64,000 nucleotides of DNA from the NCBI GenBank assembly GCA_947245585.1, contig CAMXPV010000018.1, positions 8,682 through 72,681 of the forward strand. The letters run 5' to 3'. Position numbers and translations under genes: made by a program. Within the stretch, counting starts at the first letter, position 1, and every line of letters begins with the position of its first letter. The notes below the pieces were generated by a model. It did no database searches. It saw nothing but the letters and a program-made list of their open reading frames with translations, and was not told the origin of the DNA. Below, in pieces: positions 6,121-60,931 of this stretch. The stretch comes from an uncultured Lachnospiraceae bacterium. GTDB lineage: Bacteria; Bacillota; Clostridia; Lachnospirales; Lachnospiraceae.

Positions 6121-6131
6121 GGTTTACATAA
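6121..6131. other. XerD-arm-like motif GGTTTACATAA
   Basis: Reverse complement TTATGTAAACC is a 10/11 match to the Firmicutes dif XerD arm TTATGTAAACT. Confidence 0.6.
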
Positions 6132-6187
6132 TATTAGCAGATATTAGTGGTAATACCGGAAGATATTAGAGTATTGAGATATTAGAA

Positions 6188-6725
6188 TTAGAGCAGCCTT
6201 AAAAGCTGTACCAGTTTATGCGATTCGTCTGTATCTGATGCGGCCTGCCTGGTATCAAACTGTGAAAAACGGTTGTCCTGATAGAAAGATAGCAGTTTTT
6301 CCTCATTTTCCGCTTCCAGAAATCTTATCATTTACACCATCTGTATAATTTTTTCCAAGTTGGGCAATCAGATAGGCCGACATGGTATATGTATCTGAAT
6401 TTTCGTCCAGTTCGCTGATACGCAGCAGTTTTCTTTTCATGGTATTGCTTACGGTTTCACCCCTGACTGACAAAGGCTTTAGTGCAAGGGTAAAGTATCC
6501 TAACAGTTCCTTGCTTTCCACGGAAAACACAAGATATGTAACCGATTGGCTCTTTTTGGTAAATTCTACCGCACTGTTCTTTAAAAAACGCTCCACATCC
6601 GGATTCTTCGGGCACGAAAAACCGGAAAGCACCTTGGCTAGCATTGGCTCTCCGGCTTTACTATCACTTCCTAATGCCAGATAATCACGAATGTTGATAT
6701 AGAAAAACTTATCATTGATCGGCAT
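6188..6725 (-). pseudogene. GNAT-family acetyltransferase toxin disrupted by an internal deletion/frameshift
   Basis: The 140-aa ORF ends ...KISGSGK*. The natural-looking C-terminus LEAENEEKLLSFYQDNRFSQFD...LVQLLRLL* continues in another frame to a stop at 6188-6190. Confidence 0.75.
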
Positions 6726-6903
6726 TCGCTTTCTCCCATTCTCTCATGAATTTTCTCAGTTCTTCTTCCCCTTTGATCTGCCTCGCAGCCACAGGCGTGC
6801 GTTCAGGACGGTTTTTAGCAGATTCTTCTATCGCATTGATAAACATCTCCACCTGTTCCTTGCCGGAAATGACAAAATTCTTTGTAATACTTGAAGTTGC
6901 CAT
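6712..6903 (-). CDS. Small putative antitoxin of the GNAT TA pair (63 aa)
   Basis: MATSSITKNFVISGKEQVEMFINAIEES...; SD AGGAGG upstream of ATG 6903; overlaps the GNAT start. Confidence 0.7.
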   Translation of the reverse strand: MATSSITKNFVISGKEQVEMFINAIEESAKNRPERTPVAARQIKGEEELRKFMREWEKANADQ

Positions 6904-7032
6904 AAGAAACACCTCCTTTGTTAGTATGGTTCCTTCATGATAATTCATACTTTTCTATCTCTATTTTATTATCTTATATCGGTTCATGCAACAAACATTT
7001 ATGAATTTTTATAATCTCGCTCCCCGCTTCCC

Positions 7033-58100: not shown

Positions 58101-58149
58101 CTGAAAATTTTCCTCCTCCTTAAGCCTGTCCTCATCATAAAGTGAAGTC

Positions 58150-58189
58150 CTTATAAAAAAGTCGTTGGATTTCTTATAAAAATCTTAAC
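58150..58189 (-). promoter_or_regulatory. Probable OmpR-family autoregulatory direct repeats
   Basis: CTTATAAAAA occurs twice; the minus strand reads TTAAG-N6-ATAAG upstream of the regulator. Confidence 0.45.
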
Positions 58190-58195
58190 ATCCGC

Positions 58196-58315
58196 GCATA
58201 AGCAGAGTCAGAAGGCGGAGGAAACAGGACACATGCTTGCATGTAGGACTGTTTATGACGACTTATGACGAGCAACGCGAACGAAAGATGCGAAGCATCT
58301 TGAGTCTGCTTATGC
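58196..58315. mobile_element. 120-bp MITE/REP-like element with 15-bp terminal inverted repeats
   Basis: GCATAAGCAGAGTCA ... TGAGTCTGCTTATGC (14/15 match); internal palindromes ACATGC-TT-GCATGT and AAGATGC-GAA-GCATCTT; partial copy at 28313. Confidence 0.7.
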
Positions 58316-60931
58316 CTATTTTATATCGTAATTCTCCCGCATCTCCTCCCCGGCTGCCCGCACCTCCTCGTAAAGCTCCGTGGCAGAAACACGGACCGCC
58401 CCCGCGCCCATAATAATGATCTGCTCAAGCCCATCGGATGTGGCCACCCGCACCAAATTGCTTTTCCGGCTCATCTGACGGGTCACCTTCTCGATATACT
58501 GATCCGCCGTCTCGGCTTCCTTCGTGTAAACCACGTCGATGTTGTGGTAATGCTCCACGCTGCCCGGATTCCCCTTTACCCGGTAAGCGTCAAAGACCAG
58601 AATCAGGTGCATCTTCCGATACCCCTGATAATTGCAGAGAATATCCATCAGCCTTGCACGGGCGGCGTTCAGGTCAAGCTTCGCCAGTTCGCTCAGTTCT
58701 TTCCATGCAAAGATGATATTATAACCATCTACCAACAGATACTCTTCCCTGTTCGCAGCCGTGCCCCGATACTCCGTCTCTGCGGCAGGTTTTTGTTCCC
58801 TGCGGATGGTTCTGGCCCAACCCTGTTTTTTCCTCTCTTTTGACCCGAACGTCCGCTCAAATATCTCCTCAATCTCATCCTGACCAATAGAGTCAATGCC
58901 AGAACGTCTCGCAATACGCCTGGCAAAATTCCCCGCCTCTTCCTCCTCTTCCAAATCAGGCTTCAAGACAGCCTCCAGGTGCATATACGCCTCCACCTGA
59001 TCCCACTCCACCACGAATCCCGCCCCGTGGGCGCAAAACACCGATCCGCAGGGATTCTCCAGATCCCGCTCCGCCTCGTAACCGATCCGGTCAATCACTT
59101 CCTCCGCATTGTGGCAGGGTTCATACCCCTTCCATTCCGTAAACAACCTTCCCTTTCCGCCGGAATAGGAAAGCAGCTTCGTCTGGTAGCCTCCGAACTC
59201 GGAAACCGGAACCGTGCCGGACAAGACCGCATACTCCCCTGCCGTCTCCGGCGGCCCAAACTGCCCCGACATGGCCTGTAAATCCGTCATGGCACGTCCC
59301 ACCAAAGCCGTCGGCAGCTCCATGCGAAACGCATAGACCGGCTCCAACAGCACACTCTTAGCCCTGAAAAGGCCCTGTCTGAGAGCGCGGTAGGTGGCCT
59401 GTCTGAAATCACCGCCCTCCGTGTGCTTCACATGGGCTCTGCCCGCCGCCAGCGTAATCTGCATATCCGTAATCGGCGAACCTGTGAGAACGCCCAAATG
59501 GGTCTTTTCTTCCAAATGGGTCAAAATCAGCCGCTGCCAATTCCGGTCCAGCTTGTCCTCACTGCAAGAGCTGCGAAAAGTGAGTCCGCTGCCCTGTTCA
59601 CCCGGCTCCAGAATCAGATGCACCTCCGCATAATGCCTAAGCGGCTCAAAATGCCCGACTCCCTCCACAACATCCACGATGGTTTCCTTATAGAGAACGC
59701 TTCCCTCGTCGAAACTCACTTCCGTGCCAAACCGTTCCAGAACCAGATTCCTGATGATCTCAATCTGCACTTCTCCCATGAGTCTGACATGGATTTCCCC
59801 GCTCTGCTCCTGCCTGACGACGTGAAGTTGAGGTTCCTCCTCTTCAAGTTTACATAACTTTTTATACATGTCGTGCCTGTCACAGTCTTCCGGCAAATTG
59901 ACCCGATAAGTCATAATCGGCTCCAAAAGCGGGAGAACCGCCTCCTTCTCCATGCCAAGCCCCTGCCCGCAGAAGGTGTGCTCCAGCCCCAGAACGGTAC
60001 AGATACTGCCGGCCTGCACCTCCTGTACGGCTTCATACTTCTCCCCGGAATATTGACGAATCTGGTCAATCTTCTCACCGTCATCCATTATCGTCTGCTT
60101 CACTTTGAGACTCCCGCCCGTCAGCTTAATGTGTGTCAAACGGTTCCCTAATGCGTCTCTGGTAATCTTAAATACCCTCGCGCCAAAAGTTTCTCCATAC
60201 GCAGGCGCAGGCGCATAGATGGAAAGCGCGTCAAGCAGCGCCTCCACGCCCTCCCCCTTAAGGGCCGACCCGAAAAAGCACGGAAAGATCCGCCGTTTTT
60301 TCACAAGCGCAGCAATCTCCCCCGAATCAAACGGCGATCCTTTCGGAGCGCCGGATCCTCCGGAAGCGCCCGTTTCCTCCCACATTACATACTTGTCCAG
60401 AAGTTTCTCATCGCATACCGCCACATCCTCAAAAAAAGCCTTTTCGTTTCTGTCCCGGGAAAATAACACACAGCGCCCATCCAATTCCTTCTGTACGCCG
60501 GACAATAATGTTTCCGCATCCGTTCCCTCTTGATCCATCTTATTGATAAAGAGAAAGACCGGCACATGATAGCGCTCCAACAGCCGCCAGAGCGTCAGCG
60601 TATGGCTCTGCACACCGTCCGCACCGCTTATAATCAGCACGGCACAGTCAAGAACCTGCAGTGTCCTCTCCATCTCCGCAGAAAAGTCCACATGTCCCGG
60701 CGTATCTAAGACCGTCGCCTCCATCTCTTTCCATGAAAAACGAGCCTGCTTGGAAAAAATGGTGATTCCGCGTTCGCGCTCCTGCCTGTCTGTGTCCAGG
60801 AATGTATCCCTGTGGTCCACGCGGCCCGGATTTCTGATCTCTCCCGCCGAATAGAGGATGCGCTCCGCCAAGGTCGTCTTTCCCGCATCCACATGGGCCA
60901 ACAGGCCTATCACTGTTCTTTTAACACCCAT
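58316..60931 (-). CDS. TetM/EF-G-like translational GTPase fused to a C-terminal NYN (YacP/Rae1-like) domain
   Basis: AHVDAGKTT, RERGIT, DTPGHVDF and NKMD motifs; C-terminal LLVDGYNI, VFDA, TAD.YIE and VATSD motifs. Confidence 0.92.
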   Translation of the reverse strand: MGVKRTVIGLLAHVDAGKTTLAERILYSAGEIRNPGRVDHRDTFLDTDRQERERGITIFSKQARFSWKEMEATVLDTPGHVDFSAEMERTLQVLDCAVLIISGADGVQSHTLTLWRLLERYHVPVFLFINKMDQEGTDAETLLSGVQKELDGRCVLFSRDRNEKAFFEDVAVCDEKLLDKYVMWEETGASGGSGAPKGSPFDSGEIAALVKKRRIFPCFFGSALKGEGVEALLDALSIYAPAPAYGETFGARVFKITRDALGNRLTHIKLTGGSLKVKQTIMDDGEKIDQIRQYSGEKYEAVQEVQAGSICTVLGLEHTFCGQGLGMEKEAVLPLLEPIMTYRVNLPEDCDRHDMYKKLCKLEEEEPQLHVVRQEQSGEIHVRLMGEVQIEIIRNLVLERFGTEVSFDEGSVLYKETIVDVVEGVGHFEPLRHYAEVHLILEPGEQGSGLTFRSSCSEDKLDRNWQRLILTHLEEKTHLGVLTGSPITDMQITLAAGRAHVKHTEGGDFRQATYRALRQGLFRAKSVLLEPVYAFRMELPTALVGRAMTDLQAMSGQFGPPETAGEYAVLSGTVPVSEFGGYQTKLLSYSGGKGRLFTEWKGYEPCHNAEEVIDRIGYEAERDLENPCGSVFCAHGAGFVVEWDQVEAYMHLEAVLKPDLEEEEEAGNFARRIARRSGIDSIGQDEIEEIFERTFGSKERKKQGWARTIRREQKPAAETEYRGTAANREEYLLVDGYNIIFAWKELSELAKLDLNAARARLMDILCNYQGYRKMHLILVFDAYRVKGNPGSVEHYHNIDVVYTKEAETADQYIEKVTRQMSRKSNLVRVATSDGLEQIIIMGAGAVRVSATELYEEVRAAGEEMRENYDIK

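Follow-up and report, generated by a model that had tools for sequence, protein, structure and literature searches.

Orphan XerD-arm half-sites in a sub-clade of gut Lachnospiraceae: a dense field of candidate XerD-binding sites

The chromosome dimer-resolution site dif, recognised by XerC and XerD (CodV and RipX), is a 28-bp site with two inverted 11-bp arms around a 6-bp central region; each chromosome has one copy, at the GC-skew switch or close to it. The XerD-binding sites of Bacillus subtilis, termed XDS, are a related class that reportedly keeps the XerD half of dif but not the XerC half and is bound by XerD in vivo with no need of XerC or catalysis; these sites do not recombine, number several per chromosome and form clusters in the terminus region. 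To our knowledge, unloading of SMC by XerD away from dif has been described in one model organism, at a handful of single sites. RipX/XerD prefers the conserved right half-site of dif (PMC5357621), and an artificial XDS array is reported to block Smc-ScpAB in B. subtilis (summarised in PMC11840125).

The stretch analysed here, referred to as the window, is 64 kb of DNA from an uncultured Lachnospiraceae bacterium. It contained 11 exact copies of RGTTTACATAA, compared to 0.04 expected from dinucleotide-preserving shuffles, and 0/100 such shuffles of the window reached 11 copies. A preliminary description had reported these copies on the plus strand at 6121, 21237, 29763, 34825, 50401 and 59847 and on the minus strand at 12917, 12949, 12970, 13611 and 14129; all were recovered, and its rough expectation of 0.1 proved conservative. 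Its division of the exact copies into eight that are intergenic or at stop codons and three that are intragenic (21237, 50401 and 59847) was likewise borne out. A refined consensus built from 755 kb of clade DNA, RGTT[T/A/G]ACATAA (RGTTDACATAA), was found 12 times in the window (0.11 expected). Within the clade DNA the consensus varied only at positions 1 (A/G) and 5 (T>A>G), and other single mismatches were at background. When up to one mismatch was allowed, the window gave 13 matches compared to 2.55 expected, 11 of them the exact copies; another, at 42947, was at chance level. Two near matches had also been proposed: that at 56459 (plus strand) fits the refined consensus and is the twelfth member, while that at 13577 (minus strand) has two departures, one at an otherwise invariant position. 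The features are as follows.

6121 to 6131, plus strand: GGTTTACATAA, a single orphan XerD-arm copy, intergenic between a toxin gene and the start of a giant Flg_new surface-protein gene.
12917 to 12980, minus strand: three co-oriented AGTTTACATAA copies (12917, 12949, 12970), 32 and 21 bp apart start to start.
13558 to 13625, minus strand: a 65-bp lineage-specific insertion between the dCMP deaminase and YbaK-like genes, precise relative to L123/L124 by alignment.
14129 to 14139, minus strand: AGTTTACATAA, whose last three bases, TAA, also terminate GNAT 14129-14554; the start codon of the deaminase lies 17 nt downstream.
21237 to 21247, plus strand: AGTTTACATAA, intragenic and antisense within a SAM-methyltransferase gene (21010-21780, minus strand).
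29763 to 29773, plus strand: AGTTTACATAA, in a divergent intergenic region 89 nt upstream of a SpoIIE-type PP2C phosphatase ORF (29862-31286, plus strand).
34825 to 34835, plus strand: GGTTTACATAA, intergenic, on the far side of the spoVAD terminator-like hairpin and 64 bp from the spoVAD stop codon (34899).
50401 to 50411, plus strand: AGTTTACATAA, sense, within a hybrid histidine-kinase gene (48745-51531, plus strand).
56459 to 56469, plus strand: GGTTGACATAA, within a histidine-kinase gene (54923-57427, minus strand), with G at position 5 as the clade consensus permits.
59847 to 59857, plus strand: AGTTTACATAA, antisense within an EF-G-like/YacP-NYN fusion gene (58316-60931, minus strand).

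The toxin gene beside the 6121 copy occupies 6303-6725 on the minus strand, and the inner (TTATG) end of this copy lies 8 bp from the breakpoint of a lineage-specific toxin-antitoxin insertion (6139-7014). Its counterpart in the sister lineage L123 reads TTATGTAAATC. The array at 12917-12980 separates a YbaK/tRNA_edit-like gene (12979-13563) from a GNAT gene (12443-12886). Its distal copy shares bases with the stop codon upstream and its proximal copy stops 30 nt short of the GNAT start; the spacers showed no kinship to one another. In L123 and L124 the position is taken by a 64-aa ORF together with one variant copy; that copy, GGTTAACATAA, still fits RGTTDACATAA. The 65-bp insertion holds one exact copy (13611-13621) and, at 13577-13587, the sequence GATTGACATAA, which looks like a decayed copy of the motif. 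Only the 11-mer of this segment recurs elsewhere, and the deaminase encoded by L123 and L124 is identical to that of the window, though the insertion is absent there. The sister-lineage counterpart of the 14129 copy was a 1-nt indel variant, AGTTTACAATAG. The 21237 copy, which reads I-Y-V-N-L on the methyltransferase coding strand, is kept as GGTTTACATAA in all sister-lineage contigs (L123-L130), and the 34825 copy has the same position and orientation in the relatives L141 and L144.

All 12 window copies read TTATGT[A/C]AAC[T/C], the 11-bp XerD-arm pattern of dif (TTATGTNAANT), and the 11-bp arm of dif (TTATGTAAACT) is identical to the motif. The earlier assignment of the motif to the XerD arm of Firmicutes dif was upheld, and the variation tolerated parallels that of XerD arms across phyla, in which position 5 is A in Bacillus, T in E. 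coli and most Proteobacteria and C in Frankia and Burkholderia (PMC3025954, PMC2731167). At no window copy did a search for an inverted XerD-type or Bacillus XerC-type partner arm (≤4 mismatches, 6-8 bp spacers) return a match, which agrees with the claim that the copies are orphan half-sites without a Firmicutes-type XerC arm. Information content was confined to the 11-mer and was zero at partner-arm positions (n=632 contexts). The lack of a partner arm and the end of information at the 11-mer mark the copies as monomer half-sites and not recombination sites. Unlike dif, they have neither a partner arm nor the 6-bp central region context, they number 12 in 64 kb of uniform skew in place of one at a skew switch, and array copies are direct repeats. 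Rfam covariance models gave 0 gathering-threshold matches across the whole window.

Similar to XDS, the XerD half-site is conserved here without the XerC half, is predicted not to recombine, is present in several copies and is regionally clustered. In contrast to XDS, natural tandem arrays of 2-10 copies are present, density is about 1-2 per 10 kb as opposed to a handful over a few hundred kb, and there is clade-specific expansion, copy-number turnover and a large number of intragenic copies. The matS/MatP system of the E. coli Ter macrodomain also repeats a short specific site over a large domain, where the site-bound protein keeps MukBEF, the SMC complex, off the DNA or unloads it. The likeness would be one of function only; the protein is unrelated, and matS is a 13-bp palindrome that is single and not arrayed. 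Acinetobacter plasmid pdif/dif modules and IMEX (CTX-phi, TLC-phi) resemble the present sites in having Xer sites away from chromosomal dif with accessory genes nearby, but theirs are full XerC-XerD sites at module junctions, whereas here half-sites are found and the breakpoints lie elsewhere. Integron attI DR1/DR2 and lambda Int arm-type sites likewise place extra co-oriented recombinase repeats by a core (compare L081, L031, L080 and the xer genes below); those repeats flank a functional core, whereas most copies here have no core within kilobases.

Motif density was ~1.2 per 10 kb in a sub-clade of Lachnospiraceae from the guts of rodents, rabbits and ruminants, compared to ~0.03-0.07 in other genera, and loci of Kineothrix, Eisenbergiella, Acetatifactor, Roseburia, Dorea and Blautia were almost motif-free. 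The expansion is confined to this one sub-clade, and the family Lachnospiraceae, as first proposed, is too broad a scope. XerD with this arm is present in all Firmicutes, yet the amplification is seen in one sub-clade, which a XerD-based reading would have to trace to a clade-specific cause. Arrays in relatives were co-oriented and intergenic, held 2-10 copies about 22 bp past stop codons, and showed preferred spacings of about 21, 32-36 and 42-45 bp. Adjacent copies were direct in 24 cases and inverted in 3. Intergenic bias was marked, with 56% of copies in 11% of the DNA; intragenic copies made up 57/129. Orthologous intergenic regions carried 1, 2, 2 and 4 copies with the core exact and the spacers unalignable, and a copy just after the htpG stop was kept in at least 13 genomes. 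Some arrays were plain tandem duplications (L059, L015, L080). An exact 11-mer core amid such copy-number turnover points to purifying selection.

In genomes with an anchor, 12/19 pattern-discovered arrays mapped to one ~230-300 kb domain containing the window, and the array-rich neighbourhood was that of spoVAD-htpG-purA (-95 to +135 kb). The binomial probability of at least 8 of 19 at p=0.1 is 2.7e-4, an estimate based on 19 matches mapped by hand through contigs and synteny. This clustering adds support to the dense field of the preliminary description. Its proposed place in the terminus region gained no such support. GC skew was uniformly negative in the window with no switch, and was uniform across blocks 110-150 kb apart on single contigs. 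Neither dif nor a skew switch was found in the window or any fetched clade locus, and the sampled domain lies on one replichore. Arrays were at GC-skew switches in 4/136 cases, and in the sole complete genome with a match the match was at 45% of genome length.

Genes for xerD, xerC, ftsK and smc, as well as dif, were absent from the window and from ~4.4 Mb of clade and related loci. Elsewhere, canonical dif with extra orphan arms was present at the GC-skew switches of L081 and L031, and dif with orphan arms likewise in L080; the true dif of L081, at its skew switch, reads AGTTTACATAA-TATATA-TTATAGGAAGT. A perfect palindromic site occurred at the stop codon of an Xer-family gene in L045, in L052, L066 and L010 motif pairs followed xer-like genes by no more than ~100 bp, and L093 and L097 had tandem full dif-like sites. 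Motif arrays head (proC-)spoIIM-xerD operons in four Oscillospirales (L062, L083, L120, L073). The paired exact 11-mer was found in at least 120 rows of a 596-Gb collection, compared to ~2 expected by chance (calculated), and the matches listed were mostly from Lachnospiraceae and Oscillospiraceae. This genomic linkage to xer genes and dif independently supports a connection between motif and Xer, and bears indirectly on binding by XerD.

We rate as an even proposition that the copies are stand-alone monomer sites for the host XerD-type tyrosine recombinase, acting as XDS-like roadblock or SMC-unloading sites that mark a domain. The inferred part of this reading comprises binding by XerD in these bacteria, any effect on SMC or as a roadblock, and a place near the terminus. 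One XerD-type recombinase monomer would occupy each site of the refined consensus, and a recombination synapse would be impossible because there is no partner arm. XerD on single sites, and cooperatively on co-oriented arrays, would form non-catalytic nucleoprotein roadblocks; by analogy with B. subtilis XDS, these would halt Smc-ScpAB or unload it, and perhaps also hinder RNA polymerase. The window would be part of a chromosomal domain of ~230 kb or more that the sites mark, probably a terminus-proximal one. Arrays would originate in intergenic DNA through local duplications and small insertions, with selection preserving the 11-mer as the spacers drift. Several results weigh against this reading: xerD, xerC, ftsK, smc and dif missing from the sampled loci, uniform skew, arrays seldom at skew switches, amplification in one sub-clade, many intragenic copies, and the operon-internal arrays and phage composite described next.

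The 11-mer could instead be the operator of another DNA-binding protein, such as a transcription factor or nucleoid protein, or XerD could act mainly as a transcriptional regulator or roadblock, with the domain aspect secondary or absent. Arrays are intergenic and adjoin gene ends and starts, some copies are 17-35 nt upstream of start codons, and the arrays that head spoIIM-xerD operons are in an operator-like position. Some arrays lie within operon-like runs or between a Shine-Dalgarno sequence and the ATG start codon, and these fit a role in transcription or translation at least as well. Large AT-rich phages carry the same 11-mer at very high density, and there it lies 4 nt upstream of a TTGACA-like hexamer in 27% of cases, compared to about 1% of chromosomal copies; sites in motif-dense phages, 4 nt upstream of these -35-like hexamers, also come just after terminator-like hairpins, and one such phage encodes a sigma factor. 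This promoter-proximal composite suggests that a transcription-type factor could be the reader of the 11-mer. However, the site is an exact XerD arm, shares its degeneracy and adjoins canonical dif and xer genes, and the chromosomal copies show neither a -10 signal 17 bp downstream nor a -35 composite. Copies face both ways relative to genes (41 vs 27), their regional clustering is unusual for a regulon, and a search of the flanks returned no conserved neighbouring regulator gene. Taken with these points, we judge an operator unlikely. A sigma-70-type promoter (-35 TTTACA/TTGACA with a -10 hexamer 16-18 bp further on) was rejected, as position matrices showed no -10 signal, promoter-like matches were not above shuffles and the copies face both ways.

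The preliminary description had also offered gene capture, in which Xer-dependent integration and excision events (IMEX- or dif-module-like) each left a XerD arm behind, and the cassettes of the 6-22 kb island were acquired via these arms. The island does consist of co-oriented small accessory genes with cassette-like presence and absence among sister lineages, the 6121 copy has the toxin-antitoxin insertion next to its inner TTATG end, the place at which Xer would exchange strands, and the tandem full dif-like sites of L093 and L097 would suit such a history. When gene-content breakpoints between sister lineages were checked, however, about 1/10 touched a motif, close to what chance alone would give. 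The DUF3800, AAA_14, nitroreductase/Rce1, MazE-PIN, Gp49-HTH+ECF-S and HicAB indels had no motif, gene order was identical in lineages with and without intergenic motifs, and the TA toxin was found in a single context, the cassette by 6121. The XerC arm has left no trace, only half-sites being present, public runs contained no excision joints and the window contained no recombinase gene. Gene capture is largely refuted by these results, and we consider it highly improbable. An integron cassette array was rejected as a candidate, the window having no tyrosine recombinase and the sites being 11-bp direct repeats without a hairpin partner. A short repeat that is selfish or neutral (MITE/REP-like, or multiplied by slippage or gene conversion), serves no purpose for the host and matches the XerD arm through coincidence or element targeting would account for small lineage-specific motif-bearing insertions (the 65-bp segment and the three-copy array replacing an ORF), for rapid copy-number turnover and for the plain tandem duplications. 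It is nonetheless improbable: only the 11-mer with 7-8 flanking nt recurs, inserted segments share just 18-19 nt with other loci, and terminal inverted repeats and target duplications are lacking. Spacers diverge as the core stays exact, orthologous copies persist across species, and in other orders and phyla the site accompanies xer genes and dif.

The reading of the copies as XDS-like monomer sites can be extended, tentatively, to a matS/MatP-like macrodomain system built from XerD half-site arrays in this sub-clade. XerD, without XerC or catalysis, would then define the domain, a few hundred kb long, by blocking the path of SMC and/or RNA polymerase, and would regulate its own operon in related Clostridia through the arrays there; large Firmicutes phages may have co-opted the site at promoters to recruit or titrate host XerD. 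We think this extended version unlikely.

These results go beyond XDS in several respects. Across orders and phyla, orphan XerD arms are widespread beside xer genes and dif; they form natural tandem arrays, phages have the same site at very high density, and one uncultured gut clade has amplified the arms into a field that is dense, confined to one region and under purifying selection. Should XerD bind here, dif-prediction tools, which assume that the XerD arm is unique, would be affected, and the 11-mer would be a simple genomic marker to locate such domains in metagenome-assembled genomes. The clade would also offer a natural, sequence-defined system for the evolution of chromosome domains and SMC barriers.

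The preliminary description had placed eleven copies of the 11-mer RGTTTACATAA in the window, and every coordinate and strand was exact. Dinucleotide-preserving shuffles of the window predict 0.04 copies. Allowing one mismatch in the 10-bp core added merely two matches, which is the chance level. From 755 kb of sequence, comprising the window and close relatives, we derived the consensus RGTT[T/A/G]ACATAA: A and G were about equally frequent at position 1, T exceeded A or G at position 5, and single mismatches at all other positions occurred at background frequency. The window holds 12 copies of this consensus against 0.11 expected, the near match at 56459 being the twelfth. 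The original eleven divide as first described, with eight intergenic or at stop codons and three inside coding sequences:

12917, 12949, 12970, 13611 and 14129, minus strand: five copies at gene boundaries in a run of accessory genes
6121, 29763 and 34825, plus strand: dispersed intergenic copies
21237, 50401 and 59847, plus strand: dispersed copies inside coding sequences

Two of the boundary copies (12917-14129) overlap stop codons, and the next start lies 17-47 nt downstream. The GNAT-deaminase-YbaK-GNAT run that holds them is one example of arrays within apparent operons.

The motif had been read as the XerD arm of the Firmicutes dif site, and its reverse complement, TTATGT[A/T/C]AAC[T/C], matches that arm, given for Bacillus/Firmicutes as TTATGTAAACT (PMC3025954). 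The position that varies in the motif is the same one that differs among phyla in XerD arms: T in E. coli and most Proteobacteria, A in Bordetella and Geobacter, and C in Burkholderia and Frankia (PMC2731167; PMC3025954). The conserved right half-site is the preferred binding target of RipX/XerD (PMC5357621). No window copy has an inverted XerD-type or Bacillus XerC-type partner across 6-8 bp, in agreement with the earlier claim that a Firmicutes-type XerC arm is missing. Across 632 unique contexts, information was limited to the 11-mer, with a weak pyrimidine preference at +11 and +13 and no information where a second arm would be, indicating a monomer-sized site.

From about 6 to 22 kb of the window, GC content falls to 0.41-0.48, and one feature stands out there:

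6000-21800, minus strand: low-GC island of small, co-oriented accessory genes

The island is flanked by argG on one side and a giant (~3,430 aa) Flg_new surface-protein gene on the other. It encodes toxin-antitoxin pairs, a BceAB-type ABC transporter with its two-component system, several GNAT acetyltransferases, a dCMP deaminase, a YbaK/tRNA_edit-like protein, a nitroreductase, a CPBP protease, methyltransferases and DUF3800. The remaining window carries chromosomal functions: spoVAC/AD, a SpoIIE-type phosphatase, an ECF sigma factor, aroK, ridA, pyrF, histidine kinases, an EAL-GGDEF protein and a Suv3-like helicase. There were no xer, ftsK or smc genes in the window. The giant Flg_new gene continues past the left window end, and an antisense repetitive ORF with SPSPGFCSS repeats (4984-5874) mirrors the proline/glutamate-rich repeats of its N-terminal part. 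Three copies of CTAATATCT (6140-6200, minus strand) lie directly 3' of a toxin gene and before the 6121 arm, forming a short repeat separate from the XerD arm. An 871-aa ORF (58316-60931, minus strand) is an unusual fusion of a full EF-G-like GTPase (GTP_EFTU, EFG_III, EFG_IV and EFG_C domains) with a C-terminal YacP-like NYN nuclease domain.

The usual form of the motif in relatives is a co-oriented array of 2-10 copies, with start-to-start spacing peaks at 20-23, 31-37 and 42-45 bp. By crude gene calls, 88 arrays were intergenic and 16 were not; their median position was 22 bp past a stop codon, in either orientation relative to genes. At SpoVAD-anchored loci, picked irrespective of the motif, 56% of 129 copies fell in the intergenic 11% of the DNA. 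Most occurrences there were singletons, and neighbouring copies were direct in 24 cases and inverted in 3.

Motif density was measured around three anchor genes, spoVAD, htpG and purA, all in one neighbourhood, so that the htpG and purA figures are no independent control regions: near spoVAD it was 1.22 per 10 kb where SpoVAD shared 80% identity or more with that of the window, 0.34 at 75-79% identity and 0.07 at 73% or less (Kineothrix, Eisenbergiella, Acetatifactor), against a compositional expectation of ~0.012; htpG surroundings gave the same gradient; and purA surroundings held 22 copies in ~99 kb from five clade genomes and 4 in ~1.25 Mb outside the clade (Roseburia, Dorea, Blautia, Acetatifactor and others). 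The htpG and purA anchors were picked from array-bearing loci on other contigs (L063 and L057, respectively); in other clade genomes (Lapin-017 bin49 NODE_81; Mgla_MAG_31-bin_12) both map no farther than about 45-70 kb from spoVAD. In public runs, the organism of the window turned up in metagenomes from rodent guts. Array carriers have also been cultured, namely Lachnospiraceae bacterium XBB2008 and YSB2008 (L033, L050, L079).

From contig identity together with synteny, we assigned 12 of 19 pattern-discovered arrays (among the matches listed, in genomes with an anchor) to one neighbourhood, whose limits relative to spoVAD are about -95 kb and +135 kb and which contains the window. Taking the domain as 10% of the genome, 8 of the 19 would already give a binomial probability of 2.7e-4. 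The regional clustering thus places the window within a genuine field of orphan XerD arms and lends support to the dense XerD-only site field proposed in the preliminary description.

Some sites are kept among relatives: one to three copies just past the htpG stop were retained in at least 13 genomes, and the 34825 copy after spoVAD recurs. In four sister genomes, one orthologous intergenic region holds 1, 2, 2 and 4 copies and a second holds one, two, three and three in mixed orientation; in both, the core is exact and the spacers are unalignable. Sister-lineage contigs with an identical deaminase and the same gene order carry no exact intergenic AGTTTACATAA copies; at two window-copy positions, the other lineage has an indel-decayed AGTTTACAATAG and a consensus-fitting variant, GGTTAACATAA. 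One motif-carrying segment of the window lineage is a precise 65-bp insertion, and a 3-copy array there stands in place of a 64-aa ORF. Beyond 18-19 nt, the inserted segments match no other locus; a MITE or REP type was therefore rejected, the conserved body being absent. Some intragenic copies are inherited coding sequence only. In the EAL-GGDEF protein, one intragenic copy that codes D-Y-V-N-W within the SBP_bac_3 domain is kept in at least 12 relatives and altered in the window:

L136-L153 (loci from other genomes), near locus position 3600-3950: D-Y-V-N-W copy, orthologous to window 43394-43670

To follow the motif more widely, we scanned 185,579 species genomes (596 Gb) for two exact copies 5-35 bp apart. 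At least 120 paired matches were found, against about two computed by chance, and Lachnospiraceae and Oscillospiraceae made up most of the matches listed. Among these, the commonest gene family beside the pair was the Xer-type tyrosine recombinase, at 11 loci. Four of the 11, all from Oscillospirales, encode XerD proper by NCBIfam, and in each a co-oriented array of 2-5 XerD arms heads a (proC-)spoIIM-like-xerD operon, which suggests XerD autoregulation. Five further loci encode Xer-family proteins of 317-362 aa that fall below the NCBIfam XerC and XerD cut-offs; the motif pair lies at or within ~100 bp of the 3' end of the gene in four (L045, L052, L066, L010) and ~1.5 kb away in the fifth (L078). 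This group, which also includes the L062 gene at 5233-6174, 1.6 kb from a bona fide xerD, may be a clostridial XerC-type partner or a single-recombinase system. Three loci (L081, L031, L080) carry a full canonical dif with one to three extra orphan arms within ~120 bp. The sites at these and other loci were as follows:

L062 1852-1941, L120 7789-7994, L073 6910-6969 and L083 2906-2937: arrays heading operons
L045 2940-2967: perfect palindromic 28-bp dif-like site, AGTTTACATAA-AAATAG-TTATGTAAACT, abutting the stop codon of an Xer-family gene
L081 4915-4986, Defluviitaleaceae: dif, AGTTTACATAA-TATATA-TTATAGGAAGT, exactly at the GC-skew switch
L031 7117-7264, Zixibacteria: dif and orphan arms at the GC-skew switch
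L080 6988-7101, Desulfobacterales: dif and three extra arms
L093 3499-3535 and L097 2717-2780, a gammaproteobacterium and Paenibacillus: two tandem dif-like sites

In L097, the central regions of the tandem sites are mutually reverse-complementary. The orphan arm thus recurs beside Xer genes and dif sites well beyond Lachnospiraceae.

The second proposal of the preliminary description, Xer-dependent gene capture on half-sites, was not supported. Comparison of the window island with two sister lineages, with all indels mapped, gave about ten cassette-like gene-content differences, including DUF3800, an AAA_14 ATPase, nitroreductase/Rce1 versus FMN reductase, MazE-PIN, Gp49-HTH with ECF-S, HicAB and a toxin-antitoxin pair (6303-6948). 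Only this last has a breakpoint near a motif, abutting the inner TTATG end of the 6121 copy; given the share of intergenic space taken by motifs, one in ten is the chance expectation. Its toxin was found in one context only, so the cassette does not appear mobile, and no joints were seen at arrays, as contigs from public runs read straight across. With no recombinase either, gene capture, IMEX and integron explanations were rejected. Nor do the arrays mark dif or terminus points: just 4 of 136 lie at skew sign changes, and neither the window nor any sampled clade locus has a dif site or a terminus-type skew flip. GC skew is negative throughout the window, so no origin or terminus switch lies within it; on single contigs, blocks separated by 110-150 kb have equal skew sign, and in the sole complete genome among the matches listed the array lies 45% of the way along the chromosome, where skew is still positive. 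No origin markers were found near arrays, where about one is expected by chance, a number too low to give this comparison any power. A replication-polar motif of the KOPS or Chi kind was rejected because array orientation follows GC skew only weakly (62:42) and window copies are opposite to those of relatives.

A role in transcription was weighed as well. A promoter or -35 element was rejected: there is no -10 signal, both orientations occur, and a promoter scan was at shuffle level. No known RNA family was found at the sites. To our knowledge, the invariant ACATAA half is in none of the LytTR, WalR, PhoP, cre/CcpA or sporulation-sigma consensus sequences, and these sites were therefore set aside. 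That the protein reading the motif acts on transcription is kept alive by phages. The paired motif was also found in 41 viral contigs, and eight loci of large (118-290 kb), AT-rich phages carry 1.5-3 copies per kb:

L248, L249, L250/L220, L221, L254/L237 and L252, IMG/VR contigs: motif-dense phage loci (RGTTDACATAA)

These phages encode terminase, portal, endolysin and a phage sigma factor; stop-codon recoding in them was unsupported. Against the portals of ~140-160 kb Enterococcus and Bacillus siphoviruses, theirs reaches no more than 32% identity, and an isolated relative, Enterococcus phage EF1, has 0 copies in its first 50 kb. Phage copies are often arranged as inverted pairs that face outward around GC-rich hairpins, and 27% have a TTGACA-like hexamer 4 nt downstream, compared to ~1% of chromosomal copies. 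This promoter-proximal composite, of which the window has none, shows that the same specificity also serves a transcription-linked setting.

XDS-like half-sites remain the most economical reading. Among known systems, the XDS of B. subtilis, XerD-binding sites outside dif that are summarised in PMC11840125, come closest; the sites studied here depart from them in array structure, in density, in an expansion specific to one clade and in turnover. We found tandem orphan XerD arms described nowhere in the literature searched. We give an even chance to the full reading, that these are XDS-like, non-recombining XerD half-sites, arrayed and confined to one domain in one sub-clade of gut Lachnospiraceae. 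XerD binding, an effect on SMC and a terminus location are inferred; bound XerD would likely be a protein roadblock to SMC, and perhaps to RNA polymerase.
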